Virus record (IMG/VR): IMGVR_UViG_3300036800_000073
Location: 31,584-95,583 of that record
DNA from: a virus
Length of the DNA stretch: 64,000 bases
Direction: 5' to 3' (one strand)
Below are positions 18,826 through 52,953 of the stretch, piece by piece. Made by a program: the position numbers and the translations under genes. The notes below the pieces were generated by a model that worked only from the letters and a program-made list of their open reading frames with translations, had not been told where the DNA came from and made no database searches. Numbering within the stretch: position 1 is the first letter of the stretch; each line of letters begins with the position of its first letter.

Positions 18826-19671
18826 ATGAAACGTTCGACGATAATCGTTAGTTTCGCAGCTCTGGTCTGCGTTCTTGGAATGTCCGGGTTCGCGTATTTT
18901 GGGGGACAGGCCGGGAGCGTTGCCTCCAATCCAGCACCGACCGCAAACGTGATCGCCAAGTACACCACCGCGCAGCAAGGTGTTCCGATCCTCACTCCGT
19001 CGCTATTGTCCGACAATGGAACCACGCTGTCCTACAACGGCACCCCGGTCGCGGGCGGCACCGCATATGCCAACATCTATAGCGCGGGCGGAGGCACTGC
19101 TCAGGCACAGACCATGACTCCCTCTCCTGCGCTGCCGGCTTTGCTGTCTGGCATCGGCGTGATTTGGGCACCGACCGCGGCCAACACCGCTGCTGCTCCA
19201 ACCTTGGCGATCAGCGGCCTGACGGCGAAGCCCATTACCAAATGCGGGACGGCGGCGCTGGTCGCAAACGACATTGTGACAACTGCGCTGGCTGTCGGTT
19301 ATTACGATGGAACGGAATTCCAACTGTTGAATCCGCAGGCTTCCGGCTGTCCTCGCTCTGCCTATGCCACCACTACGAATTGCACCAGTTCGGCGTCTCC
19401 GGCAGTCTGCGCCGCTGCCGCCGCTGGGTCAGTCGTCGTCGCCGCTGCCGATACTACAATTGTCGTGGATACCACAGCGGTTACGGCTAACAGCCAAATT
19501 ATCGTGCAAGAGGATGCCAGCCTAGGTGCCAGGCTGAGTGTGACCTGTAACGCGACAGCAGCCACCGCGCCGCCCGTTGTAACCGCGCGAACCGCCGCAA
19601 CGAGCTTCACCATCACGACCACCGTGCCCATCGCGAATCCGCGCTGCCTCAGTTATTTCATCGTCAACTAA
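18826..19671 (+). CDS. signal-peptide-bearing fibre-like protein
   Basis: N-terminal MKR plus hydrophobic stretch; Thr/Ala-rich; PTLAISGL.AK.I...YDGTEFQLLNP domain; 6 Cys in the predicted mature part. Confidence 0.65.
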   Translation: MKRSTIIVSFAALVCVLGMSGFAYFGGQAGSVASNPAPTANVIAKYTTAQQGVPILTPSLLSDNGTTLSYNGTPVAGGTAYANIYSAGGGTAQAQTMTPSPALPALLSGIGVIWAPTAANTAAAPTLAISGLTAKPITKCGTAALVANDIVTTALAVGYYDGTEFQLLNPQASGCPRSAYATTTNCTSSASPAVCAAAAAGSVVVAAADTTIVVDTTAVTANSQIIVQEDASLGARLSVTCNATAATAPPVVTARTAATSFTITTTVPIANPRCLSYFIVN

Positions 19672-37493: not shown

Positions 37494-37730
37494 TCACCGG
37501 TGTCGGATGGAATCGGGGGCAATCTGGAGTATGTCGCCAAGAGCGGCTTTGATCTTATCGAACAGCGCAGGATCACACCGGGGAATTGCGATATAGGCCA
37601 TCTGACTGTCGAACATCGCTTCGATCATGTCGGTGAGAAGCTGGCGGGCGCTGATATCCGTCTGTTGAGCCAAGTGTTTAACCGCTTCCGCGGTAACTGG
37701 CTTCAAGGACAGGGTGATGTTGAAGCCCAT
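37494..37730 (-). CDS. antisense small protein, possibly ribbon-helix-helix
   Basis: GAGGAG RBS; fills the gap between baseplate genes; ITLSL-helix-helix pattern. Confidence 0.5.
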   Translation of the reverse strand: MGFNITLSLKPVTAEAVKHLAQQTDISARQLLTDMIEAMFDSQMAYIAIPRCDPALFDKIKAALGDILQIAPDSIRHR

Positions 37731-37767
37731 GGGGAAGTCTCCTCGTATCCAGTGTAAAGGAGTTCCG

Positions 37768-38826
37768 ATGCCGATTAGTAGCCGGTCCACGACGCCCTAC
37801 TTCGGCAGGAGCTATTCGCTTGAACTTACGCCCGCAGGCGGACCGGCAGCAGGCGAAACAATAATTATTACCAGCGACCAGTTCGAACCCAATGCGCTGC
37901 GCATCAGCTTCGATGTATCCCAGGTTGCGTTCGAAGCGTTCTGGACTGCGGAGATCGTGATCTACAACTGCGACGGAAGCTTTACCACCAGCAGCGGACA
38001 GTTGGTCAATCTATATGAAGCGGTGATCCAGGAGGGCGATACGGTCACGCTGCGAGCGGGCTATCAGGCCGATGGCGAACCGCGCGTAATCTGGACGGGC
38101 CCGGTGTTCTATACCGTGCACGACCGCTTAGATGTAACGGATCAGCGGCTTACCATTCACAGTATTGTGAATCGCCTTACGACCACTAACAACTTCGTCA
38201 ATACCATCGCTTCGGCGCTCAGCACTCAGTACGAGCAAGCATTGCAGATCGCGAAGGAATCGCAAACACCGTTCCAGATCAATGCGCCGCAGCTCCAAAA
38301 GCTAACGGCCAAGAGCCCGTGCGAAACAATCTTCTTCGGTAATCCTCATCACTATTTGAAGGCGCTGGCCGATCAAAACGATCTACTGTCGTGGTTCGAT
38401 TCGAAGGGCTGGAATACAGATGACGCGCTGCAACAGCCCATCGGAGATTTGGTTGCCACCTATGGGCCGGCCACTCCGTTGGACTCCTCTCCCACGAACC
38501 TGCCGGATGGCACTACCCTGAGTCTCATTGGTCAGCCGCAGCAAGTGCAGTTCGGCGTGGACTTTCGCGTGCTGCTCGATAACCGCGTTCAGATCAACCC
38601 GCCACTGCCGCGCGTGGGAGTACAAAGACAAGCAATCCGCCAAGCTGCTATCGCTTATCCGCTCGGCGCGTTTCCTCCGCTTCCCCTGCGAGACAGCTAT
38701 GTGGTGGTGGGTGTCCGGTTCATTGGCGATACCAGAGGCAACGCCTGGTATCTGGACATTACCGGGCGGACGCCGATTCTGTCAGCCGCGACCATGATCG
38801 GGATCGGGCAGAGCCAACAGAACTAA
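37768..38826 (+). CDS. baseplate hub protein
   Basis: YFGR, AEI.IYN, V.L.AGY, GDTRG..WY. Confidence 0.8.
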   Translation: MPISSRSTTPYFGRSYSLELTPAGGPAAGETIIITSDQFEPNALRISFDVSQVAFEAFWTAEIVIYNCDGSFTTSSGQLVNLYEAVIQEGDTVTLRAGYQADGEPRVIWTGPVFYTVHDRLDVTDQRLTIHSIVNRLTTTNNFVNTIASALSTQYEQALQIAKESQTPFQINAPQLQKLTAKSPCETIFFGNPHHYLKALADQNDLLSWFDSKGWNTDDALQQPIGDLVATYGPATPLDSSPTNLPDGTTLSLIGQPQQVQFGVDFRVLLDNRVQINPPLPRVGVQRQAIRQAAIAYPLGAFPPLPLRDSYVVVGVRFIGDTRGNAWYLDITGRTPILSAATMIGIGQSQQN

Positions 38827-38838
38827 AAAGGATGCCCA

Positions 38839-39513
38839 ATGCTCTCAGTTCAGGAACGGCTTGCAATCCCAACGGAATCAATCAACGGAGCGGCATGGCA
38901 GTGGGCCTGTATGCTGCGAAGTGCCATTCCGGGCAAGGTACTGGCGTTCGATCCGGTGAAACAAACCTGCACGGTGCAAGTCATGATTCAGGAGATCGTA
39001 TTCACTTCGCCGCCAGCGCAGCCGGGCTCTCCCTTGACGGGCACACAAAACATTCCGACTCCGGTAAGCATCAAGCCATTGCTGAATGTCCCGATCTGCA
39101 TGATGCGCGTACCAGGATGGTCGATCACGCTGCCCATTGTCGAGGAAACGGAATGCTTGCTAATCTTTATCGACACCGCCAAGGATGGATGGTGGACAAC
39201 CGGCAATCTTCAACCACCTGCAGCGCGTCGCCGTCATAGCCTGTCGGACGCCTTCGCGTTGTTCGGTCCCTGGTCGCAGCCGAATGTGCTGCCCAACTAT
39301 TCCACCAGCTCGATGCAGATTCGCTCGGACGATCAGAGCGTGATGATCGATCTTGCGCCAGGCGTCGCCACCATTACAGCTCCCACCGTCGCAGTGAATG
39401 CTGCCGATGTAAACATCACGGCGTCCGCGGATGTAAACATCACTGCTGCGGGTGTGGTCAACGTGACCGGATCGGACGTTACCATCATACCGCTCGACGG
39501 CGGGACTTTCTAA
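38839..39513 (+). CDS. baseplate spike (Gp138-like)
   Basis: IPGKV..FD...QT..VQ, ECL..F.D, RRH.LSD. Confidence 0.85.
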   Translation: MLSVQERLAIPTESINGAAWQWACMLRSAIPGKVLAFDPVKQTCTVQVMIQEIVFTSPPAQPGSPLTGTQNIPTPVSIKPLLNVPICMMRVPGWSITLPIVEETECLLIFIDTAKDGWWTTGNLQPPAARRRHSLSDAFALFGPWSQPNVLPNYSTSSMQIRSDDQSVMIDLAPGVATITAPTVAVNAADVNITASADVNITAAGVVNVTGSDVTIIPLDGGTF

Positions 39514-40805
39514 TGCCGTCCCCTTATGTTCTCTACAAAGGCACATCTGCGACGCTAGCTACCTTGCCTTCCACCGGCAAAGCGGGACTGTTGTTATTCA
39601 CCACAGACACGCTCCAAGTCTATGTTGACAGCGGGAGCGGCATTGGAATAGGACCCGGAATCGGAACCGCGTGGATTCCGGTCAGCGGAGGCGGCGGTGG
39701 CGGTGGCGTAACGCAGTTGGTGGCGGGCACAAACATCACGCTATCGCCAGCGGGCGGGACCGGGACAGTAACCGTCGCGTCTATAGGAGGCGGCGGTTCT
39801 ATTACGGATGTCGTGGCGGGAACCGGGTTGAATGGAGGAGGCTCCAGCGGTTCAGTCACGCTGAATCTCGATGTTCCCGTATCGGTTGACGATGGAGGCA
39901 CGGGCACAGGAACCCCGGCACTCGTAGCGGGAACCGGCATTTCGATCAGCGGCTCGTGGCCCGATCAAACCATTGCGGCGACCGGCATCCTTCCAGCCAA
40001 TACACCAGGCATCGCTAACAAATGGTTGTGGAGCTACGATCCCACGACGGGATTATTCACGCAGACGCAGCCGGCCTTCTCGAATGTAAGCGGTGTAGCG
40101 ACTCCGGCGCAGATCGGCACAGGCACGCCAGCGGGAGGCGACTATGTAGACGGTGGCACCGGGGCATGGACGCCATTGCCGATAGCCACGCCCAGCGTGC
40201 GCGGGCTCGTAAGTCCGGATGGAACAATCATTACGGATACGGCCGGAGCAATTACCGTCGCCAAGGCTTCTGCTGTGGCCTTCGGCGTGGTCGAAGTGGA
40301 CGGCACGACCATCGCGTCGATGTCGGGCGTGATCAGCGCGATACTGCCTTCTGGCGCTGCGAACCAGGTGCTGGCGACGCCCAACGGCTCCAGCGGTATT
40401 GCAGCAAACCGGTATCTGGTGATTGCGGATCTTCCGGCCAGCGTGCAAATGGCTCCGATCGGCGTAACGCTATTCGCGGTCGATATGAACAATCCTCAGT
40501 TCGTCGAAATCTACTTCAACGGAACCATCGCAAGCTGGACGCTCATTGGAGACGCTCCAGGCTCGGCCAGCGTGGACGTTTGGTTTGAGGCGGGAAGTGC
40601 GCCGCCTGCGGCTCCTCCGGTGCCCACTGTGGCAAACAAGATCAGCGCATCGGCTCCTATCTCTGTATCGTCCGCGCAGTCAGCGGCTGGCGGCACATCT
40701 ACGTGGACGACAAACCTCACGCAGTGGGGAATGCTGGCGTTCAATCTTACCGCCATGTCGGGCATGACCAAGGCATTCATACAAATTCAGGGAACGAGGA
40801 ATTAG
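39513..40805 (+). CDS. tail fibre-like protein
   Basis: Gly/Thr-rich; repeated VAGTGL/AGTNI segments. Confidence 0.65.
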   Translation: MPSPYVLYKGTSATLATLPSTGKAGLLLFTTDTLQVYVDSGSGIGIGPGIGTAWIPVSGGGGGGGVTQLVAGTNITLSPAGGTGTVTVASIGGGGSITDVVAGTGLNGGGSSGSVTLNLDVPVSVDDGGTGTGTPALVAGTGISISGSWPDQTIAATGILPANTPGIANKWLWSYDPTTGLFTQTQPAFSNVSGVATPAQIGTGTPAGGDYVDGGTGAWTPLPIATPSVRGLVSPDGTIITDTAGAITVAKASAVAFGVVEVDGTTIASMSGVISAILPSGAANQVLATPNGSSGIAANRYLVIADLPASVQMAPIGVTLFAVDMNNPQFVEIYFNGTIASWTLIGDAPGSASVDVWFEAGSAPPAAPPVPTVANKISASAPISVSSAQSAAGGTSTWTTNLTQWGMLAFNLTAMSGMTKAFIQIQGTRN

Positions 40806-40807
40806 TA

Positions 40808-41809
40808 ATGGCGATTTTTGGAGCGTGTTGCGAGGACGTGGACTGGCCGATATTTGGCACTGCTTCTGTGGACACAACCGCAGGGCATTTTCGCGCGGGC
40901 ATCTCACGGTGCGGCTTTTCTGTACCTAGCGTTGCTGCCTTCGTAAAGAGCTTGCCATTCGCTGCGGGCGCGGTTACAAGTATGCAGTTAAGCGCACAAA
41001 TATATAACGGAGCTAATATTCCAAATACCTCTTCGCAATTCCTCGCCTTTGGATTGTCTGGAACAAATAAATGCCTCGGAATTGGAAACGACGCTTCCAA
41101 TGGAAGCAAGTTGTGCATTTACAAATACGATGGAACGACCCGTACGCAACTAGCAGCGGAGGGCGGAGCCTCTTTTTCGACCCTCGGGATTCAGCGTCTC
41201 GATATGCAGGTGACAAATTATGGGGCATCTGCTACCGTCAACGTCTACATTAATGGCGTGTCAATCATCAGTTTTACGGGAGACGTGACCGTCTCCGGCA
41301 TGACCAATTTCGATTCTGTGTTCCTACCAACCCACACAACCTTCGCGTCGGGAGTTCTTATTTATTCGGAAGTCTTCTACTGCGACAGCAGTTCGCTCGC
41401 CATCGTCGCTCTTCAAGACCTTGCACTGACCGGACCTGGCACGACAACGGGCTGGACAAACAACACTTACACCAACATCAATGGCACAACCCTCTCAGAC
41501 CTGAATCCGACCTCAAACAACGCCACGGCGTCCCAGCAATACACGGTGACCACTCCGACGCCCGTTGTCTACGGAGTTGCGGCGGTACAGATCAGCGCTC
41601 GCATGGCTAAGTCCACCGGCTCAACGCCTACGCAAGTCAAACTCGGCTACGGCAGTGGAGGAACGGGTTATTTCGGCACTGGAGCAGCCAAGACGGTTAC
41701 GACCGGCTACCAGACTTACATCCAGGTGGACACCGTGAACCCGATCACCGGATTGGCATTTACGCAGAGCGATATCGCAAGCCTGCAATTTGACCTGACG
41801 GCGGCCTAA
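40808..41809 (+). CDS. tail-associated beta-sandwich (lectin-like) protein
   Basis: Thr/Gly/Ser-rich; coupled within the fibre cluster. Confidence 0.55.
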   Translation: MAIFGACCEDVDWPIFGTASVDTTAGHFRAGISRCGFSVPSVAAFVKSLPFAAGAVTSMQLSAQIYNGANIPNTSSQFLAFGLSGTNKCLGIGNDASNGSKLCIYKYDGTTRTQLAAEGGASFSTLGIQRLDMQVTNYGASATVNVYINGVSIISFTGDVTVSGMTNFDSVFLPTHTTFASGVLIYSEVFYCDSSSLAIVALQDLALTGPGTTTGWTNNTYTNINGTTLSDLNPTSNNATASQQYTVTTPTPVVYGVAAVQISARMAKSTGSTPTQVKLGYGSGGTGYFGTGAAKTVTTGYQTYIQVDTVNPITGLAFTQSDIASLQFDLTAA

Positions 41810-41812
41810 ATC

Positions 41813-42988
41813 ATGGCGACCTATCGCACATCGGCGGCGGGCGGCAACACCGTTTCAGGAACCAGCCCGACTGTGACCATTACGCCCGCGGTTGGCGATC
41901 TACTCATCGTCTTTTGTCAGGCAACCGGAAACACGAATGCCACACCAACCTGCTCTGATGCGAATACGGGCGGCTCTTACACCTTGATCGCCACAGCGGC
42001 GAGCAATTCGTCGCTAAACACGATGTCGGTATTCGTCCGCACGGCGACCGTTCCCAACACCACGTCAACCACGGTTACGGTAGCCTGCGGGGCACACGTC
42101 GCCGCCGAAGTGGTTGTTTACGCCTTGAGCGGAGCGACGGTCTACGGCTCGGGTGCAATTCAGCAGTTCATCACGCAGGCTAACCAGGCGGGGGCAACCG
42201 TTCCGGCTCCAACGTTCGCCAACCTGCCCAACCCGTACAACCTGATCCTGAGCGCGGTTGCAAACATTACCAACCCCGCTGGCGTAGCGGTCTCGGCGGG
42301 AAATTCTCCGACATGGACCCGCGATCAGAATGTAGGACAGACGGCCTGCGGGCTTTCGACAGAGCACACCAATAACAATCTCTCAACTAAGGCTGTGACA
42401 TGGGGCGGCACTTCCGCTTCCGCCTTTGCCTCGATGGCGATAGAGGTTGTGTCACCGCCTACGACCGCAGGCGTAAACGTTTCAAAGCTGGTGGGATATG
42501 GATTTGTGACCCCGTCAGCCGGTGTGGACGTTTCGAAGCTGGTCGGCTACGCCTTCGTGACTCCACCGCTCGGCGTCAATGTGTCGAAGCTGGTCGGCTA
42601 CGCCTTCGTGACTCCACCGCTCGGCGTCAATGTGTCAAAGCTGGTCGGCTACGCCTTCCTGACCGCAAATAACACCAATCCCCCGGTCTGGCCGGTGTTT
42701 ACGGTTCCGATTGGCTATGTGGGCAATCCGTACTCGATAGGGTGGGATTTAACGCCCGCTGCGGCTCCGACGACCTACACGCTGGTGGGCGGGGGCGCGT
42801 TTCCGGTTCCCGGCCTGACGCTAAACAGCGTCACGCTGGATCAGGGCAGCATCACCGGAACGCCGACAACCGTGGGAGTTTATTCATTCACCATTCGCGC
42901 CACAAACACCTACGGCTTCGCAGACCAACCGTTCACGATCACGATTACGGTTGGGGCTGGAGCAGGTTCTTCTACCTACGCAGGATAG
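41813..42988 (+). CDS. tail-associated protein with 17-aa repeats and C-terminal Ig-like domain
   Basis: PGLTL....G.ITGTPT..G.YSFTIRATN.YG Ig-like motif. Confidence 0.7.
   Translation: MATYRTSAAGGNTVSGTSPTVTITPAVGDLLIVFCQATGNTNATPTCSDANTGGSYTLIATAASNSSLNTMSVFVRTATVPNTTSTTVTVACGAHVAAEVVVYALSGATVYGSGAIQQFITQANQAGATVPAPTFANLPNPYNLILSAVANITNPAGVAVSAGNSPTWTRDQNVGQTACGLSTEHTNNNLSTKAVTWGGTSASAFASMAIEVVSPPTTAGVNVSKLVGYGFVTPSAGVDVSKLVGYAFVTPPLGVNVSKLVGYAFVTPPLGVNVSKLVGYAFLTANNTNPPVWPVFTVPIGYVGNPYSIGWDLTPAAAPTTYTLVGGGAFPVPGLTLNSVTLDQGSITGTPTTVGVYSFTIRATNTYGFADQPFTITITVGAGAGSSTYAG
42470..42660 (+). repeat. 51-bp coding tandem repeat, about 4 copies (GVNVSKLVGYAFVTPPL)
   Basis: Directly visible in DNA and protein. 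Confidence 0.9.
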
Positions 42989-43406: not shown

Positions 43407-44855
43407 ATGGCATATGCAGCGCCAGTAGTCACCGCAGCCGGATTGTCGGTCCCCTCGTATGCCGATATCCGCGGCTCTCTGACGGCCAGCTATCAAACCA
43501 TCTTCGGCCAGACTACCTACCTGGGAAATGATGCGGCGGACTATCAGTGGATCTCCGCTGTCGCTCTGAAGCTGAGCGATAATTGCAGCCTTTGCCAGTT
43601 GGATTACAATAACCGGGCTCCGCTCACCGCGATTGGAGCGGCGCTCGATTCCCTGGTCAAGCTCAATGGGCTCGCTCGCAAAACAGCATCGTTCTCCAGC
43701 GTGATCCTTACCTTGACCGGCACCGCTTTTGCGACGATCACGAATGGCATCGTGGCCGACGCGAACGGTATTTACTGGCTGCTGCCCTCGACAGTGACCA
43801 TCGGCGTAGCCGGTACGGTCAGCGTGAGCGCGATCTGCCAGCAAGCGGGCCCGGTCAGCGCGAATGCATACACAATCACTACGCCGGTAGGCGGCTTCAC
43901 CGGGGGATGGACTTCAGTCACTAATCCCAGCGCGGCGGTGGTCGGGACGCCCATCGAAACGGACTCGCAACTTCGCGCCCGGCAATCGCTTTCCGTGGCG
44001 TTGCCATCGCTCACGCGGCTTGCAGGGACGATTGCCGGGATTGCGGCGGTGCCTGGAGTTAGTTTGTACAACGTGGTCGAGAACCAAACCAATGTCACCG
44101 ACAGCTATGGCAATACCGGCCACTCGATCACCGCCGTCGTCCAGGGCGGGACCGATCTCGCCGTGGCCACTGCCATCTATGACAATCGCGGAATCGGCCC
44201 CAATACCCAGGCTGCTACGGTCCCGACGATGACCATTGTGCCGGTCACCGATGAAACCTCGGGGAACATCACAGATATTGGTTTCGTCCGTCCGGTCGGG
44301 GTGCCGATCTTTGTAGGCATCAGCATTCACGGCCTCACCGGGGTAGCGCCTACGAGTGCGGTCACCGCCAGCATTATTACGGCGCTTGTTGCCTATCTCA
44401 ACAACTTGCAGATCGGCGAAGAGGTTACGCAAAGTGCGCTCTATGGAGCTGCTCTTTCCGTGATACCAAATCTCGCGCAGCCCATTTTCTCCATTCGCGG
44501 TTTGACGTTGGGAACCGCCGCATCCGCGCTGTTTACCGCAACGCCGGGTGCCTCCATTGGTACGGGATACATTGTCGGAGATGTCTTGGTCCCCACTGAG
44601 GCCGGAGGTTCCGGTGGATCGTTCAGTGTTACCAGCGTGGACGGCAGTGGCGGAATCACCGGACTCAGCGCCCAGCCGGTCGCCGTGGGAACGGGATATC
44701 ACGTAGCAAACAATCTGCCCACTACTGGAGGCACAGGCCTGGGAGCCCAAATGAACATTACCGCCGTGGCTCCTATTACCACCACCGATATCGCCTTGCT
44801 GTTTTACCAACTCGCGTCGGCGACTACGGCAACCGTCGCACTGGCGGTGATCTGA
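43407..44855 (+). CDS. baseplate J-like protein
   Basis: G..LD.L..L.GL.RK, VTNP.AA..G...ETD.QLR.R, HSI..VV.GG. Confidence 0.9.
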   Translation: MAYAAPVVTAAGLSVPSYADIRGSLTASYQTIFGQTTYLGNDAADYQWISAVALKLSDNCSLCQLDYNNRAPLTAIGAALDSLVKLNGLARKTASFSSVILTLTGTAFATITNGIVADANGIYWLLPSTVTIGVAGTVSVSAICQQAGPVSANAYTITTPVGGFTGGWTSVTNPSAAVVGTPIETDSQLRARQSLSVALPSLTRLAGTIAGIAAVPGVSLYNVVENQTNVTDSYGNTGHSITAVVQGGTDLAVATAIYDNRGIGPNTQAATVPTMTIVPVTDETSGNITDIGFVRPVGVPIFVGISIHGLTGVAPTSAVTASIITALVAYLNNLQIGEEVTQSALYGAALSVIPNLAQPIFSIRGLTLGTAASALFTATPGASIGTGYIVGDVLVPTEAGGSGGSFSVTSVDGSGGITGLSAQPVAVGTGYHVANNLPTTGGTGLGAQMNITAVAPITTTDIALLFYQLASATTATVALAVI

Positions 44856-45473
44856 ATGTCTTCGATTCAATATCTTCCCGTTGGCTACTATGCGGGACTG
44901 CTGACATCAGAATACAAACCGGCCGTGAAAATGAATGCCTGGCTAACGGCTGTGCTTAACATCGCTACCGACATTTCTACCTGTCTCGCCAGCATGTCCG
45001 CGGCCTTCGATCTGGATTATGCGCTGGGAGTGCAGCTAGATATGCTGGGGCAGATCGTCGGAGTGGCACGCACGCTGCCTTTTCAGCCGAGCGGCGGCGT
45101 GAGTCCGGTTCTTGATGATCTGACCTACCGTCTGCTGCTCAAAGCGACCATCGCCAGCGATGCGTGGGATGGGAAGATTGGGAGTCTTTACCCCATTTGG
45201 GGATCGCTGTTTACGGGTGGGCGAATCGCCATTATTGACAACCAAAATATGACTGCCACCGTTGCGCTGAGCGGATCATTCTCCTCGATCACTCAGGACA
45301 TGATCGCCGGGTATGCAACCAACGGGGCAAGCTCCGGGCCGATCATCAACGGGCTGATTATTCCGAAGCCGCAGGCGGTCCAATACAACTACTCCTTCAA
45401 CGACTTGCCTGTCTTCGGCTTCGACCGCGAGGATGCGTTCATTGCCGGATTGGGCACAGGAAAGTGGAGCTAA
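44856..45473 (+). CDS. baseplate wedge protein (DUF2612-like)
   Basis: FDLD.A.G.QLD.LG.IVG..R, DD..YR.LLKA.I, DNQNMT. Confidence 0.85.
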   Translation: MSSIQYLPVGYYAGLLTSEYKPAVKMNAWLTAVLNIATDISTCLASMSAAFDLDYALGVQLDMLGQIVGVARTLPFQPSGGVSPVLDDLTYRLLLKATIASDAWDGKIGSLYPIWGSLFTGGRIAIIDNQNMTATVALSGSFSSITQDMIAGYATNGASSGPIINGLIIPKPQAVQYNYSFNDLPVFGFDREDAFIAGLGTGKWS

Positions 45474-45474
45474 T

Positions 45475-46467
45475 ATGGGCAGCAGCAATATTCTTCCTTG
45501 GGATCAGAGTCAGACAAATATGGACGACGATCCGACGTATCTTGCCGATACGCAGCGCGTGGATGGCGGCATTGATGGAGTGGAGTTTCCGTCAAAGACG
45601 TTCAACAAATTAGCTCTTCAAACCAGCGGAGTCTCATTTGCGGTCGGTCAGTTCCTGGCCTCCAAGGGATTCACCATTACCGATTCCGATCTGTGGGGAA
45701 TCGTAGCGGCCCTGCAATCATTATTCGCGAATGTGCCGGGACGCACTCAACTCCTGTCGGTCACCTATTCGCCGCTGGTGACTCTCAACGTGGGAGTCGC
45801 ACTCGGCTTCGAGCTTACCCTTGCCGGCAATGTCGCGCTCACCATCACCGGGCTGAATGCCGGAGACACCGTCCTGCTGTTTTTTATCCAGAACAGCGCA
45901 GGAAGTCATACCATTACCTGGCCGAGTAACACCAGCGGGTTCGGACAACCGGACCCGAATCCAAATACTTTATGTGTAATGGTGGGGAAGGTGTCCGCCG
46001 ATCTCATTCTCCGCTCGTCGGCTCCTGCGATGACCGCGACCGGAATCAACAACACGGCGATTGGTCAGGATGCGGCTGCGCCGGGAACCTTTACCAATGT
46101 AGTCGTGTCCGGATCGCTGACGGCTCCGACTCCCGCTTCCTCCGACAACAGTACAGAGGCGGCGACTACGGCGTGGTGCAAGTTCGGGTTTGCCGTATCG
46201 ATCGGAGTGAACGGATACCTGAAACTACCGACCTGGCTGGGCGGCCTGCTCCTCGAATGGGGCACAGCGAATTCAGCTTCGTCGTCGCAGTCGATCACGT
46301 TTCCCCGAGCGTTCGGCAACGTATTCAGCGTGGTATGCACGCCGCTGAACTATGGGCCCAATGCTGGTCGCGCGTCTCCTTATCTCAACGGCCTCACCAC
46401 TACCGGCTTTACGCAAACCTCTGCCGGATCGACCAACTCGATCTTCTGGTTTGCTGTCGGTAACTGA
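45475..46467 (+). CDS. tail fibre protein
   Basis: APT....DNST..ATTAW, NGY.KLP...GL..EWG...FP..F C-terminal fibre domain. Confidence 0.8.
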   Translation: MGSSNILPWDQSQTNMDDDPTYLADTQRVDGGIDGVEFPSKTFNKLALQTSGVSFAVGQFLASKGFTITDSDLWGIVAALQSLFANVPGRTQLLSVTYSPLVTLNVGVALGFELTLAGNVALTITGLNAGDTVLLFFIQNSAGSHTITWPSNTSGFGQPDPNPNTLCVMVGKVSADLILRSSAPAMTATGINNTAIGQDAAAPGTFTNVVVSGSLTAPTPASSDNSTEAATTAWCKFGFAVSIGVNGYLKLPTWLGGLLLEWGTANSASSSQSITFPRAFGNVFSVVCTPLNYGPNAGRASPYLNGLTTTGFTQTSAGSTNSIFWFAVGN

Positions 46468-46504
46468 AGTTCTTCGCACGGCAACCGATCATTCAGGACC
46501 AATC

Positions 46505-47875
46505 ATGCGCAAACTGATTATTCTCGCCGGCCTCATGCTGGCGGCGGCGCTGTGCGCTCAGACAGTCACGCCGAACATCGCGTTGCAGCTTCCGGCCAAT
46601 GGTTCGCAGAATTGGAACCTGCCTCTCAATTACAACTTCACGCTGCTGGACCTGTATCTCGGCAATGCCCGGCCTCTTCCCCTCGGCATGACTGCGCCGC
46701 TATGGAACGCGACGACCGGGATCCAATTGAATGGCAGCTACGGCCTCACTGGACAGTGCGTGGTATCCACCGGGACTGGATCGGTCTGGCAGTCGTGCGG
46801 ATCGGGCGGGGCACCGGCACAGCTAATTGAGCCTGGCTTTATTCCACCGGCTGGCGGCCAATATGTCTTGCTCAAGCCTACGATCTGCGCGGCCACTCCC
46901 GAGTTGGCCAACACTACCGGAACCGGATACTGCGCAAGCGATAACAGCGGTGGAGGAATAGCCTGCGCCCGCTCCGGACCCCTCAGCGAATGCTTTTATC
47001 GTCTGGCCTTCAGCGGCTTCACGCTGCCAAGCTATGTCTTACAGTCGAATATCACCGCGGTCTATGCCGTCGCCAGTACAAGTTCGAGTGGCAATGAGCA
47101 CTATGCTTTAGTGGGTTTGGATTGCGGCCCCGGCCCCCACTATGTGACTCCTCAGGGTGGGTCCGGTCTGAATAGCTGGTCGCTCCAGCAAGTATCGATG
47201 CTGTGGGGATCGGTGCCGGCGATCAGCAGCGTAAGTTGCGTGACATCGGGGGGAGCGACAATTGGCGGAGGGCTTGGATCAAGCGAAGTGGCCGCAGTTG
47301 GATTGTATGTGTTTTACACCGGAGCAGCGCCGCCAGCCGATACCAATGCGCAGACTGCGTGGCCTCTTACTTACACGACCCCGTATCTGTCCATCAGTTT
47401 CCCCTACGATGTGGCGACGGACCCAATCAACACCAATGCCTACGTCGCTACCGTACCGGCCTATCTGAACCTGGCTAATACGACCGCCGCCACCGGGCCT
47501 CCTGTTGATACGACGGTGAGCCTGGTCGTTTCCAACCCAAGCACCAGCACCACGCCCACGCTCGCGGTCAATGGCCAAGCCGCCGCGACCATTGTGGGGC
47601 CGACAGGGAACCCATTGGTATCGGGCGACATATCGTCGACTTATCCAGCCAGACTGCTCTGGGACGGCACCAATTACGAACTGCAAAACCCGCAAGTCTC
47701 TGGCGGCATCGCCACGGGGATCTCCGCCTATACAGTGGCGACGTTGCCGGCAAGTCCACAAGCGCATACGATTTATCCAGTACGCGATGGTGTAACGTCT
47801 ACCGATTGCAGCACCGGGGGCGGCACCAGCCATGTCATGTGCTATTTCGATGGCTCAACCTGGGCGGCATTTTAA
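46505..47875 (+). CDS. signal-peptide-bearing tail-fibre-like protein
   Basis: MRKLIILAGLMLAAALCA|Q, then TPNIALQLP..G..NW..PLN.NF..LD; 10 Cys in the predicted mature part. Confidence 0.7.
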   Translation: MRKLIILAGLMLAAALCAQTVTPNIALQLPANGSQNWNLPLNYNFTLLDLYLGNARPLPLGMTAPLWNATTGIQLNGSYGLTGQCVVSTGTGSVWQSCGSGGAPAQLIEPGFIPPAGGQYVLLKPTICAATPELANTTGTGYCASDNSGGGIACARSGPLSECFYRLAFSGFTLPSYVLQSNITAVYAVASTSSSGNEHYALVGLDCGPGPHYVTPQGGSGLNSWSLQQVSMLWGSVPAISSVSCVTSGGATIGGGLGSSEVAAVGLYVFYTGAAPPADTNAQTAWPLTYTTPYLSISFPYDVATDPINTNAYVATVPAYLNLANTTAATGPPVDTTVSLVVSNPSTSTTPTLAVNGQAAATIVGPTGNPLVSGDISSTYPARLLWDGTNYELQNPQVSGGIATGISAYTVATLPASPQAHTIYPVRDGVTSTDCSTGGGTSHVMCYFDGSTWAAF

Positions 47876-48448: not shown

Positions 48449-49362
48449 GCCGTCAACCTCGCGTAGGTCAGCCGTGTTCCATCAACAGCCTTAATGAACG
48501 AGTCCAACCTATCCAGCGTGTGACGCGCGACGTTGCCAGCATTGAGGCGAAAAGTAACTTCGTTCACATAGCGCCCGGTATGTTTGGCACTGATGTGGTG
48601 CCAAGTTCCGTAAACGCCGCGTTTCAGGAGCGCCCAGACGGATTCGATGCTGTTCGTGTGGACTCAACCGCGCTTATACTCGCCAGCGCCGTGGTTTACA
48701 GTCGCGTGATAGAAGAACAGACCATCCATGCCCTGATAACCGCTAGCCTCATCCGTCATAAGCTGAGAACCGACTTCAACCTGTTCAATGATGGCACCTT
48801 GCAGCGTCTCTTTGCTCGTGTTGTCGATGGGAAATGCCATGACCGGACCGCCACGTTGCTTAATGCCCATTACCGCCGTCTTTCCCACCGCGCCACGCCC
48901 CATGCGCAGTTTGTCACACTCATGTTTGTTGGCTTCCTTGCCGCCAATGAAGCACTCGTCCACTTCGATCAGTCCAGAGAACTTGTCCATCTTCCCGGCG
49001 CACGCCTCACGGAGCCGTTGCAGCATAAACCAAGCTGTCTTTTGGGTAACGCCGATCTCCTTTGCAAGCTGCATCGAACTGATTCCCTTTCGCGCAGTAA
49101 CGACAATGTACATGGCATAAATCCACTTGTGCAGCGGAACGTGCGACCGCTCAAAGATTGTCGCTGTACGAACCGTAAAGTCTACCTTGCACTGATTGCA
49201 GCGATAGAAACCGTCTTTGCGGGTTGTGATCCTCTTACGGGTCATGCAAGACGGGCAAGTTGCCCCATCTGGCCAGAGGCGAGATTCCAGATACAGACGC
49301 GCGGTTTCTGCGTCTGGAATCATCGCAAACAATTGAAAGGTGCTGATGGTCGATCTGCTCAT
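48445..49362 (-). pseudogene. IS1595 transposase interrupted by in-frame TGA at 48664-48666
   Basis: Zn ribbon CPSC/CNQC, EVDE, TDE; the frame continues after the TGA as VHTNSIESVWALLKRG...YVNE..FR.N. Confidence 0.9.
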
Positions 49363-49923: not shown

Positions 49924-50131
49924 GGAAATTTAATGACGACGATCTGCAAACACTGCAACGTGGAGGGCGTCCAAGTTGCGACATGTGAAAGTTATCGCGC
50001 TCCCGAGCAGGCCACAGCGGGGAATTAAGCACGTAATTCCTTTTTAATGACCGCGCTCGATACTGCGGCGTGGAGCCCGTCGTCGCGCTTTAGTTAACAG
50101 AATGTTTCTTATCAGACATGGGAAAAGAGGA

Positions 50132-50755
50132 ATGACTATGATCTTTGGCATCAGCAAATCCACCATTGAAGGATTGCTGGCAGCTCTGCTCGCGCTGGCG
50201 GGACCGGCTACGGCACTGCTTATCGCCCTGCAAGCAATCAATCCACACCCGAATTACACCCTTTCGATTATAGGGATTGTGTTGACCTTCCTATTCGCAG
50301 TGCTTCGTGCGTGGGCGGGGTTGATTCAGAACGATGCGACCGCACCCGTCTCCAGCACCGCCAACAAATCCAGTATCCCGCCAGTGGTAGGGTTGCTCCT
50401 GCTCTTTGCGCTGATACCGGTCCTGATGGGCTGCAAGACGCAGCAACCGCCGCCAGCGTGGGCCGCGACTGCTCCAGCGCTGACTCTGCCCGGCGAGCTG
50501 ATAGCGGGGGCGAACTTCGCCGTGGTGGGCTATGAGAAAGACGCAGCCGCTGGCGTGGCCTATACGAAGGATGCCGCGTTGAAGGCGGTGATCTCGGATA
50601 TCCAGAAGGCGCTGGTGGTCGCGCAGCCCGCGTTCAATACGTGGGAAGCTGCGGCGAAGACCAATCCATCCGCTCTTGAGCCAGCCGATCTATCGGCTGC
50701 GCTGCTCACCATCCAGGCCGATATCGGCAAGCTCCCCGCTCAACTTCAAAAATGA
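50132..50755 (+). CDS. holin-like membrane protein with internal lipoprotein signal (LMGC)
   Basis: Two hydrophobic helices, then VVGLLLLFALIPVLMGC; upstream of the endolysin candidate. Confidence 0.55.
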   Translation: MTMIFGISKSTIEGLLAALLALAGPATALLIALQAINPHPNYTLSIIGIVLTFLFAVLRAWAGLIQNDATAPVSSTANKSSIPPVVGLLLLFALIPVLMGCKTQQPPPAWAATAPALTLPGELIAGANFAVVGYEKDAAAGVAYTKDAALKAVISDIQKALVVAQPAFNTWEAAAKTNPSALEPADLSAALLTIQADIGKLPAQLQK

Positions 50756-50807
50756 CGGGCCGACAAACCAGATAAGCTGACTCGCAGCTACCAAAAGGAA
50801 AAAAGCA

Positions 50808-51149
50808 ATGCTCACCATCATTCTCACCGTTCTGTCCGGCCTCGGATCGTATTTGGCCCCTTTCATCGGGTCCAACTTTGGCGCACTGATTAACGCCACA
50901 GTCGCCGTCATCGCCAAACTCGCCGCCACCTTTGCATCGGGCGGCTCCATCTCAGCGGAGGCATCTGCTGTCATCGCCGCGCTCCAGCAAGAGGCCAAGG
51001 CGGTGGCTTCCGATACCAGCGCCAGTCCAGCGCAAGCCGCCGCAGCGCAGGGAATCCTTGCCCTGTGCGGTTACTTCCTTGCCGGCGTCGAAGCGGCGCA
51101 GAACGGCCAAGATCCGTCTTCGCTGCCGGTGCCGCCTCCGGTCGTATAA
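50808..51149 (+). CDS. hydrophobic Ala-rich protein (lysis-associated?)
   Basis: AAGGA RBS; hydrophobic/amphipathic helices. Confidence 0.5.
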   Translation: MLTIILTVLSGLGSYLAPFIGSNFGALINATVAVIAKLAATFASGGSISAEASAVIAALQQEAKAVASDTSASPAQAAAAQGILALCGYFLAGVEAAQNGQDPSSLPVPPPVV

Positions 51150-51182
51150 CGCCAGCGCAATTCAACCGATACACAGGTGTCC

Positions 51183-51587
51183 ATGAAATTTATTGAGGCT
51201 ATCGCGTGGCATGAGGGCTTCTACGTCAAGGGATCGCGGGCGCAGAGAAACAATAACCCCGGCAATATCGAATGGGGCCCGTTCGCACGGGCTCACGGTG
51301 CGACCTCCATCGAGATCCCGCATGGCAAGGAAAAGCCCCGCTTCGCTTACTTCCCCGTGGGATGCGGCTTCTCGGCCATGAGCGCGCTGCTGTGCGGTGA
51401 GTATCTGGGGCTCACGATTGGAGAAGCTATCACGAAGTGGGCACCGCCAAGCGAAAATGACACGGCGGAGTACATCAACGACGTATGTGCGAAGACCGGT
51501 CTACCTTCTACGACCGTACTTACGGCCGCTTTAATCAACATGCAACCTGATAGTGAAGGGCTTTCCCATGGCAACGATACAGAATGA
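51183..51587 (+). CDS. lysozyme-like endolysin candidate
   Basis: EG....S...RNNNPGNI, F..F, I.KWAPPSENDT..Y. Confidence 0.7.
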   Translation: MKFIEAIAWHEGFYVKGSRAQRNNNPGNIEWGPFARAHGATSIEIPHGKEKPRFAYFPVGCGFSAMSALLCGEYLGLTIGEAITKWAPPSENDTAEYINDVCAKTGLPSTTVLTAALINMQPDSEGLSHGNDTE

Positions 51588-52275
51588 ATCGGTACTCACA
51601 AACCTCGAAAGAGAAACTACGTGGAGCGAAAAGGCTGGACCAGAATATAACAATCCCCCATCGACGACCTTTTGGACCAAGCTGCTCAAGAACGGTATTC
51701 GCGAGTTCGGTCATGTCGCCCCGGCAGGCGGCGGCTGGCTCTCCGGGTTGAATGACCTTGCCATCCCTGCGGGCTTCGTAAGGGGCAATGTAATCCATAA
51801 GGCACGGATGCTGTTCGATGCGTCGATTATGGACTGGACGACCGGAAGCCGCATTGTGTGCGAATTCGACAATCGCGTAGCGGATGGCAAGGGCAACAAC
51901 TTCAATTTCTCAAACCAGATCAATTTGTCGAACGGGTCGTTCTGGCAGGTTGACCCGCAGACTGGCAAGTGGACGAATTCGGTCCAGATCGCTCCCTTGG
52001 CTCCGCTGACCTGGTATGACCTGGAGTTTACAAACTTCCTCGATTTGGCGGCGCTCAAGCTGTCGTTCCTATCGCTGAAAGTCAGACCAGACGGCGATGG
52101 CAACGGAGTCACCTATGTGGCCCCGGCTGTATTGGGCAAGCTGACGCCAATGAAGGATGCCGCGGGCCACGCGTGGGCGCGGGGAGCAAACCTGCAAGTC
52201 CAGCAATGCCGTCAAACGGCGGGCGTGGCGCTCTTATACGCCTACGATATCGGCATGGTGTGGCAGGCTCAATAA
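51568..52275 (+). CDS. hypothetical beta-rich protein
   Basis: Clean ORF, last of the rightward block. Confidence 0.5.
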   Translation: MATIQNESVLTNLERETTWSEKAGPEYNNPPSTTFWTKLLKNGIREFGHVAPAGGGWLSGLNDLAIPAGFVRGNVIHKARMLFDASIMDWTTGSRIVCEFDNRVADGKGNNFNFSNQINLSNGSFWQVDPQTGKWTNSVQIAPLAPLTWYDLEFTNFLDLAALKLSFLSLKVRPDGDGNGVTYVAPAVLGKLTPMKDAAGHAWARGANLQVQQCRQTAGVALLYAYDIGMVWQAQ

Positions 52276-52953
52276 TTATTCTTTGGGAGAGGCGAGCTGG
52301 TAGGTGCCTCGACCGATTCGTACAATCTCTCCCTTGGCTCTTAGGTAAGATAGCGCTGGTGGGAGACTGGTTCGCGCCGATGCTTGCTTCTCGGGAGAAG
52401 CGGCATCGGCTATTTCTTTTGCTGTAAAGGACTGGCCGGGATGGGAATGGAAGACCTTGCGTGCATCCGCATAAGTGAACGTCGCTCCGTTGGAATAGGC
52501 GACGCGAGATGTGTGTTTCGCGGTCGATGGCTTGAGCCACTGTGGAGCGATCTTGCTGCTGTTGTCCACCACCAACTGACATGCGGCCAAGGTGTCGTCG
52601 ATCTGCTGCAGAGCCGCCAGATCGAGGGCTCGCTGCGCGTTCACGCCATCCAGTTCGGCGGTCAACGCGTTAGCGCGCGCCTGGGAGTTTTCGAGCGAAC
52701 AGGAGAGCAGTGTACGTGAGCTTCGCAATGAGTCCACGATGGAGGCTACGTGCTGGCTAAATGGTCCGCTGGACGGCCAGGTTTTAGAGTCGCGGCTTTC
52801 CGGGGCCGGTGTGGGCGACTTAATCTCGGCGCGGATCGTCGGAAGCGGAGGAGCCTCCTCAGGCGCGGAGTTGTGAGGCTGAAAGGCAGAGGATACGGCA
52901 ACAAAGCGGTCAATATCGACTTTCGTCTGACCGTTGGATGTTGAGACTGGCAT
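52276..52953 (-). CDS. hypothetical protein with coiled coil and C-terminal winged HTH
   Basis: FTAKEIAD...ALSYL..KGEIVRIGRGTY. Confidence 0.55.
   Translation of the reverse strand: MPVSTSNGQTKVDIDRFVAVSSAFQPHNSAPEEAPPLPTIRAEIKSPTPAPESRDSKTWPSSGPFSQHVASIVDSLRSSRTLLSCSLENSQARANALTAELDGVNAQRALDLAALQQIDDTLAACQLVVDNSSKIAPQWLKPSTAKHTSRVAYSNGATFTYADARKVFHSHPGQSFTAKEIADAASPEKQASARTSLPPALSYLRAKGEIVRIGRGTYQLASPKE

Follow-up and report, generated by a model that had tools for sequence, protein, structure and literature searches.

A Tail-Fibre-Type Protein with a Predicted Sec Signal Peptide and Paired Cysteines in the Tail Module of a Contractile-Tailed Phage

The Gene and Its N-Terminus

The stretch of DNA considered here (the window) comprises 64,000 nucleotides, bases 31584-95583 of the 95.6-kb IMG/VR virus record IMGVR_UViG_3300036800_000073. 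The gene of interest lies at 46505-47875 on the plus strand and encodes a protein of 456 amino acids (P0001, the target protein), which begins with a predicted Sec-type signal peptide and continues as a tail-fibre-type protein with paired Cys. An earlier note on this DNA, made from the sequence alone, had described a signal peptide, a fibre-like motif, and 10 paired Cys in this gene, and when rechecked from the sequence the description was correct in every detail. The features of the gene are the following (a slash marks a predicted cut).

46505-47875, plus strand: target gene, a real open reading frame (ORF) of 456 amino acids with an ATG start
46495..46498, plus strand: Shine-Dalgarno-like AGGA, separated by a 6-nt spacer from the ATG at 46505
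46505..46558, plus strand: predicted Sec-type (signal peptidase I) signal peptide, residues 1-18, with the predicted cut LCA/Q; sequence features kept in homologues
46559..46819, plus strand: mature N-module, residues 19-105, with the TPNIALQLP motif and Cys85/Cys98; candidate anchoring or trimerisation module
46832..47329, plus strand: jelly-roll beta-sandwich resembling a carbohydrate-binding module (CBM), residues 110-275, with three Cys pairs; AlphaFold2 (AF2) pLDDT mostly 80-97
47393..47707, plus strand: tail-fibre shaft "bead" by structural match, residues 297-401; copies up to 7 in homologues, including signal-less classical fibres
47717..47872, plus strand: C-terminal Cys-loop minidomain, residues 405-456, YTVATLP...DG.S.TDC..GGG....C...G..W

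The n-region of the predicted signal peptide is formed by R2 and K3 (MRK) and is followed by an uninterrupted h-region of 13 residues, L4-L16, with Kyte-Doolittle 11-mer means up to 2.8. Ala18 fits the -1 position of the predicted cut and Gln19 occupies +1, while Leu16 at -3 is tolerated rather than typical; homologues have ARA/Q, SKA/Q, LSA/Q, ISA/Q, and similar ends. The Gln that follows the predicted cut in most signal-bearing homologues recalls the "Q-rule" and the pyroglutamate N-termini described for Bacteroidetes, although the hosts in the present case appear to be Acidobacteriota. No twin-Arg (Tat) motif is found in the N-terminus, and a lipoprotein signal was ruled out, as the lipobox is missing (A-A-L-C, with Leu at -1) and the Cys is not conserved among homologues. 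Just after the predicted cut, residues 22-50 carry the motif TPNIALQLPANGSQNWNLPLNYNFTLLDL (TPNIALQLP..G..NW..PLN.NF..LD). The 10 Cys of the mature part fall into five local pairs, namely, 85/98, 128/143, 154/163, 207/245, and 435/446.

The stop codon of the upstream short-fibre gene and the target ATG at 46505 are separated by 37 nt. The alternative in-frame starts (ATG 46535, TTG 46583, and ATG 46688) are not preceded by a comparable Shine-Dalgarno-like site. A crude filter found signal-like hydrophobic starts in 5 of the 115 phage ORFs, and a chance hydrophobic stretch was ruled out by this rarity and by the recurrence of the N-terminal layout in about 30 homologues and in the syntenic genes of 27 viral contigs. 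Only two of the five look like classical signals, the target and the ORF at 18826-19671, and both carry the fibre bead motif. The latter ORF (MKRSTIIVSFAALVCVLGMSG..., plus strand) has 6 mature Cys and lies in the head module after a MuF-like gene; its match to the shaft-bead region of the target protein covers 30 residues at 50% identity. A scan for promoters and terminators around the target gene, limited to the sigma-70-type consensus, gave nothing above shuffled expectation, and neither DsbA nor a signal peptidase of family S26 was found encoded in the phage genome.

Homologues, Signal Conservation, and Cysteine Parity

An exhaustive phmmer search of 1.84 billion representatives returned 305 proteins at E <= 0.001; the counts of signals and Cys given in this section rest on 150 listed homologues of these 305. 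A word-indexed protein search gave a single relative. No match was obtained for the target protein in Pfam, in PHROGs, or in a PDB sequence search, nor in Pfam for ten of its relatives. When 50,697 deposited phage genomes were searched by tblastn with the whole protein and with residues 19-110, nothing appeared beyond one match at E 0.2. The phmmer matches are split into modules, corresponding to the N-terminus (1-120), a central region (~108-420), a repeated unit (~320-410) present in up to 7 copies per homologue, and the C-terminal Cys-loop (400-455).

About 30 homologues align from residue 1. They start with M-[KR]-K and a hydrophobic core, end the segment with x-A/Q or x-G/Q, and show TPN[IL]GL 2-7 residues further on. 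T22, P23, N24, P30, W37, F45, and D49 of the N-module are invariant among homologues. A signal-peptide-like start occurs in 112 of the 150 listed homologues, and 105 of these 112 have Q at the predicted +1 position, although the scoring rule favours such sites. The mature Cys count is even in 100 of the 112 (binomial p 2e-18). Many of the 38 other listed homologues look N-terminally truncated. Those that genuinely have no signal resemble tail fibres of the classical kind and match the repeated unit only; their Cys content is 0.2-0.9%, as against ~1.9%.

Signal features maintained without conservation of sequence, together with paired Cys, are as expected of exported, disulfide-bonded proteins. 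Judged from this comparison of sequences, Sec export, cleavage before Gln19, and disulfide formation are very probable for the target protein. The earlier note had pointed to signal conservation among homologues as a check, and the signal features are indeed kept, without sequence conservation, in 112/150. A true start downstream of the hydrophobic stretch, which the same note had named as the finding that would speak against it, is contradicted by this conservation.

Domain Structure

The AF2 model of the target protein, built on a 60-row alignment, has a mean pLDDT of 77, with high values at residues 110-300 and 310-400 and low values in the N-module and over the final 55 residues. Residues 110-275 align with VIA-align Z 6-8, the common-fold range, to CBMs, to the C-domain of CBA120 TSP4, and to the Kp7 fibre gp52. 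Foldseek likewise gave CBM matches for this jelly roll, and Pfam gave no CBM match in the target protein. The modelled fold suggests that the jelly roll may bind a glycan.

Residues 297-401 superimpose on residues 241-340 of PDB 9b45 chain 2 with VIA-align Z 9.2 and a root mean square deviation of 2.8 over 97 residues at 20% identity. That chain is the tail fibre gp47 of Pseudomonas phage Pa193, in which residues 1-340 make up three trimeric "beads" (PMC11456595), and the counterpart of the target segment is bead III. The Cys-loop minidomain is mobile, as it directly follows the signal peptide in other proteins, and it is poorly modelled here (pLDDT 41-53). A search of BFVD gave 78 matches at E <= 0.001, and the named proteins among the top 50 are mostly tail-fibre, collagen-repeat, or minor-tail proteins; the ESM Atlas gave weak leads, mostly to viral clusters of tail-fibre type. 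As far as the model and these matches indicate, the target protein is built from real fibre parts, and it is probably trimeric. A complex prediction with three copies each of short-fibre residues 100-344 and of the mature N-module (19-100) scored 0.00, which weighs neither way.

The Same Slot in Related Viral Contigs

The window encodes a prohead protease, a major head protein, a tail sheath, a tape measure bearing an SLT domain, a baseplate hub, a J/wedge protein, and a DUF2612 protein. The head, sheath, tape measure, and baseplate genes therefore identify a contractile-tailed phage (myovirus). The genes that define the position of the target are the following.

37714-38826: baseplate hub, tail module
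43407-44855, plus strand: baseplate J/wedge, lineage-defining together with DUF2612
44856-45473, plus strand: DUF2612 baseplate protein, lineage-defining together with J
45433-46467, plus strand: ORF of a signal-less short tail fibre with a Gp53-like_C knob; probable start M15 = 45475

The order of hub, wedge/J, DUF2612, short fibre, and target bears out an earlier reading in which the target closes the tail module. When IMG/VR was scanned with the N-module, 45 contigs were recovered, and in 44 of them the gene occupies the same slot, following the tape measure, hub, J, DUF2612, and short-fibre genes. The N-module stands behind a signal peptide in 27 contigs, among them every close relative of the window, and the proteins that it heads reach 1564 amino acids. 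A further 16 contigs encode signal-less proteins of 126-195 amino acids in which the N-module starts 3-8 residues after the initiator Met (MASETTTPNIGLQIP...). Comparison of this distance with the 2-7 residues between cut and module in the homologues shows that a cut pre-protein would expose the module at the same N-terminal distance. The C-terminal parts of three signal-less N-module proteins match PHROG tail-fibre families (E 7e-8, 7e-6, and 8e-13). The "phage fibre-type" status that had been given to the N-terminal motif stands in so far as these signal-less same-slot sisters match tail-fibre PHROGs; it gains nothing from deposited phage genomes, where the motif has no detectable match.

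A tree of baseplate J places the window in a 16-row clade (100/100), all members of which have the signal, and the state of signal or no signal changes at least 3 times across the tree. Signal peptides are present even in the signal-less clade, on each of the one to three large ORFs that come next, and, wherever a contig has the complete region, on all large ORFs from the short fibre to the lysis genes. Seven contigs (L011, L019, L020, L041, L043, L048, and L049) have a signal-less fibre which is a stub of 188-193 amino acids, and their large distal proteins are all signal-bearing. The slot of L041 (12630-17192) holds a signal-bearing GH10 protein of 1520 amino acids with CHB_HEX_C and Fn3-associated domains, and that of L049 (13838-16567) a signal-bearing right-handed beta-helix protein of 909 amino acids. 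Judged from gene order and sequence comparison, the target gene is a constant part of the tail module across a lineage of myoviruses whose hosts are probably Acidobacteriota.

A separate observation concerns small proteins of 192-232 amino acids with a hydrophobic N-terminus and a fibre-collar-like motif, NSL[VI]DNTPIG, in three contigs (L011 9399-9977, L019 4364-4942, and L048 4183-4881). They are flanked on one side by the fibre stub of 190 amino acids and on the other by the large protein that bears a signal.

Downstream Genes and Other Features of the Window

The region between the target gene and the lysis genes, and the lysis genes themselves, are described by two further entries.

48664-49362, minus strand: remnant, probably, of an IS1595-family transposase gene, with a zinc ribbon and a partial DDE domain (positions 2-109 of 153); between target and lysis region
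50102..52275, plus strand: putative lysis region with a holin-like membrane ORF, a small hydrophobic ORF, and a lysozyme-like ORF; based on the ORF map and on relatives

The IS1595 element is considered a probable remnant because no terminal inverted repeats were found for it. Pfam gave no match for the lysis-region ORFs 50102-50755 and 51553-52275. In relatives, the lysis genes come directly after the signal-peptide genes. Directly after the lysis region of the window, the ORF 52276-52953 (minus strand) contains a domain of the AbiEi_4 antitoxin type. Upstream, three ORFs of 430, 368, and 391 amino acids (39513-42988, plus strand) lie between the hub and a gp25-like wedge gene; they are without counterpart in related contigs, where the gap is ~750 nt, and may be lineage-specific baseplate accessory or host-recognition genes.

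A Second, Unrelated Phage Lineage

In many relatives of the central domain, the signal is immediately followed by another module (GAVQxHCYLGG..SSNY..GIIP). With this module, a scan recovered 39 further viral contigs whose structural genes have no similarity to those of the window. The gene sits after head/structural genes and before an endolysin gene, and nearly all members, judged by eye, have a signal. Even Cys counts were found in 19 of the 21 complete ORFs that could be scored by pattern. One contig encodes a signal-less variant which starts at the motif itself (L087 8001-8342, MSIGAITNYSVLGASQAEVSGL...), indicating that gain or loss of the signal also occurs in this unrelated lineage. In some of the second-lineage contigs the GC content is only 45-50%, which tempers an assignment of all hosts to the Acidobacteriota.

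In the homologue P0003 the N-module differs from that of the target protein, whereas over target residues 91-410 the two share 44% identity. From the second-lineage modules and P0003 it follows that the N-modules are lineage-specific and that the distal domains move between lineages. A lineage-specific N-module joined to mobile distal domains is the pattern of virion-anchoring domains in fibres and spikes.

Host and Phage-Borne Nature of the N-Module

A scan of genomes with the DUF2612 alignment gave matches in a Bryobacteraceae chromosome, in an Acidobacteriaceae metagenome-assembled genome (MAG), and in a MAG labelled Actinomycetota. The two MAGs have one to three tandem signal-bearing genes in the slot; no signal-bearing slot gene was found in the Bacillota and Pseudomonadota relatives. 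The host of this soil myovirus probably belongs to the Acidobacteriota.

A first scan of genome contigs with the N-module had no match. Within the genomes matched by the DUF2612 scan, the N-module is present only in prophage, and among 401 sampled genomes of the host phylum it occurs in 2, once in a prophage and once in a standalone chromosomal gene. The N-module is essentially phage-borne, given that only these 2/401 genomes have it. The standalone gene (L059 6298-7839, minus strand, MKRILWFLLLSTMAAQTTPNLHLNLP...) comes from the same phylum as the Acidobacteriaceae MAG (G003) and encodes both a signal peptide and the N-module. No tail genes were found within ~8 kb of it, and it may have been domesticated or be what is left of a prophage.

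Proposed Route to the Virion and Its Alternatives

The favoured reading, to which we assign a probability of about 0.45, is that the target protein docks on virions at lysis as an accessory glycan-binding fibre. The modular tail-fibre-type Sec pre-protein would cross the inner membrane late in infection by means of its 18-residue signal peptide. Signal peptidase I would cut after LCA, leaving Gln19, likely cyclised, as the new N-terminus and placing the TPNIALQLP module at the extreme end of the chain, and five local disulfides would form in the periplasm. The mature protein would then consist of the N-module, the CBM-like glycan-binding jelly roll, the fibre shaft bead, and the Cys-loop tip. 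It would be stored in the periplasm until the envelope is breached by holin, endolysin, and spanin, and only then meet the cytoplasm-built virion. Through the lesions made by the holin, particles from the cytoplasm could reach a dense pool of the protein in the periplasm while the outer membrane is still in place, and docking would take place through the N-module.

Docking is favoured because each lineage has its own N-module, kept at the very start of the mature chain, because the signal-less versions in the same slot are fibres, because shaft beads make sense only with one end anchored, and because without docking a large receptor-binding protein would be missing from some sister phages. Several points weigh against it. 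We know of no tailed phage with exported fibres, and the papers searched on tail fibres with signal peptides, secreted receptor-binding proteins, and Acidobacteriota phages gave no precedent for the design. Virions are assembled in the cytoplasm, and attachment would thus have to occur in the short time that lysis takes. The gene directly upstream already provides a complete short fibre, signal-less and with a knob. The slot of Burkholderia phage Magia holds morons which act on the envelope, some slot proteins are typical secreted enzymes (GH10, beta-helix), and one standalone chromosomal copy lies outside any prophage.

Most of these points serve equally the view that the protein is exported and never enters the virion, acting as a free periplasmic or extracellular glycan-binding protein. 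Its role would be receptor masking or competition, or, as for the neighbouring GH10 and beta-helix proteins of sister phages, the loosening of exopolysaccharide for the escape of progeny; masking would mean superinfection exclusion or the shielding of progeny from debris, as with T5 Llp and Cor. The signal peptide and the even Cys counts fit a free protein just as well, and the CBM-like fold suggests glycan binding. The slot which holds morons in Magia holds signal-bearing GH10+CHB_HEX_C and beta-helix proteins in sister phages; the upstream fibre is complete without a signal, exported fibres have no precedent, and a standalone chromosomal copy exists. Signal peptides are in addition reported on about 5% of prophage carbohydrate-active enzymes, or CAZymes (PMC13507307). 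Conversely, it is not evident why a free protein should keep a module specific to its lineage at the extreme mature N-terminus, or carry trimeric shaft beads in as many as 7 copies. The gene is fixed in the tail module (44/45 contigs) instead of being a sporadic moron, it follows the fibre gene by 37 nt with no promoter-like site in the sigma-70-type scan, and some sister phages would be left without a large receptor-binding protein. A free secreted protein is the main rival, a real possibility that is held to be somewhat less probable than docking. The export and disulfide half of what the earlier note had proposed, an exported, disulfide-folded fibre attaching at or after lysis, is well supported by the comparative evidence; of attachment and the secreted decoy which it gave as the alternative, attachment is slightly favoured.

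Other explanations concern the hydrophobic segment itself. An uncleaved N-terminus could hold the fibre at the inner membrane, or the protein could be displayed on the surface as a membrane- or cell-bound adhesin, in line with a shaft-like architecture that suggests one anchored end and with a Leu at -3 that is not the commonest choice. This is improbable, as an h-region of 13 residues is too short for a stable transmembrane helix, x-A/Q or x-G/Q stands at the right place in 105/112 homologues, and an outer-membrane translocator or sorting domain was not found. It is less probable still, indeed most unlikely, that two starts are used, with ATG 46505 giving an exported form and ATG 46535 (M11) a cytoplasmic virion form without a working signal. 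M11 lies in frame inside the h-region, and the signals of P0012, P0016, and P0020 also have an internal Met, but no Shine-Dalgarno-like site precedes 46535 and the internal Met is missing in P0019, P0025, and P0026, so that the feature is not conserved. Equally little credence can be given to an ordinary cytoplasmic fibre, whose true start would lie downstream (TTG 46583 or ATG 46688) or whose hydrophobic stretch would be ignored by Sec. Although the characterised fibres of tailed phages are, as far as is known, all cytoplasmic and signal-less N-module versions exist, a start at 46583 or beyond loses the invariant T22-P23-N24, the segment before the motif keeps signal-peptide features across homologues, and the even Cys counts argue for oxidative folding.

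Returning to docking at lysis, a broader form of it can be put forward tentatively, with odds somewhat short of even. Several lineages of soil phages may build their virions in two compartments, the capsid, tail, and baseplate being made in the cytoplasm, and long receptor-binding fibres and spikes that are exported by Sec and folded with disulfides in the periplasm being added at the holin breach via lineage-specific N-modules.

Comparison with Known Systems

Classical myovirus fibres such as Pa193 gp47 share with the target protein the location at the end of the baseplate-tail module, the bead fold, and a conserved N-module with exchangeable distal parts. The target protein differs in its conserved Sec-type signal and five Cys pairs, while the signal-less fibres of its family are Cys-poor. 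To our knowledge, Pa193 gp47, like every characterised tailed-phage fibre, has not been reported to carry a signal peptide.

T5 Llp, the Cor proteins of phi80/N15/T1 type, and lambda Lom have signal peptides; their genes neighbour those of tail fibres or receptor-binding proteins, and their site of action is the envelope of an infected or lysogenic cell. They are small lipoproteins or outer-membrane proteins without fibre modules and of sporadic occurrence, whereas the target is a multi-domain fibre-type protein of 456 amino acids (up to 1564 in relatives) and is fixed across its lineage. The pIII protein of Ff filamentous phages is a receptor-binding protein which has a cleavable Sec signal and acquires its disulfides in the periplasm before joining the virion. 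Inoviruses, however, assemble at the membrane and are extruded, while the target phage is contractile-tailed, with capsid, sheath, and lysis cassette, and its virion and exported protein would thus be made in different compartments. Endolysins of the Sec or signal-arrest-release (SAR) type and spanins of tailed phages are also late proteins with N-terminal signals and act in the periplasm. They resemble the target in being late, signal-bearing, and encoded next to the slot; the target has instead a fibre and CBM architecture, and no muralytic or spanin-like domain was found in it with Pfam and PHROGs.

The nearest cultured baseplate J, with 44% identity, is that of Burkholderia phage Magia (NC_070954). 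The order of J, DUF2612-like, fibre, variable slot, and lysis genes is shared, but the slot of Magia holds an O-acetyltransferase and an outer-membrane lipid esterase, not fibre-like proteins, and its annotation, which is all that was consulted, mentions no signal on the fibre.

Significance

Virion proteins of tailed phages, fibres included, are assumed to be cytoplasmic. The absence of signal peptides has even been used as support for the phage origin of target proteins of diversity-generating retroelements (PMC6199706). In one phage lineage, the tail module constantly includes a fibre-type protein whose export signal is conserved, and an unrelated lineage shows the design again; hundreds of modular proteins with paired Cys from soil metagenomes, as yet uncharacterised, are involved.

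If these proteins join the virion at lysis, this would be a new assembly route for tailed phages, and standard pipelines, in which a signal peptide counts against assignment to the virion, would miss the receptor-binding proteins of these phages. If they stay free, they would form a large unrecognised class of phage-secreted proteins that bind or degrade glycans in hosts abundant in soil, probably Acidobacteriota. Either outcome bears on host-range prediction, on the annotation of soil viruses, and on the search for stable glycan-binding modules. The findings suggest that in these phages part of the host-recognition gear matures outside the cytoplasm.

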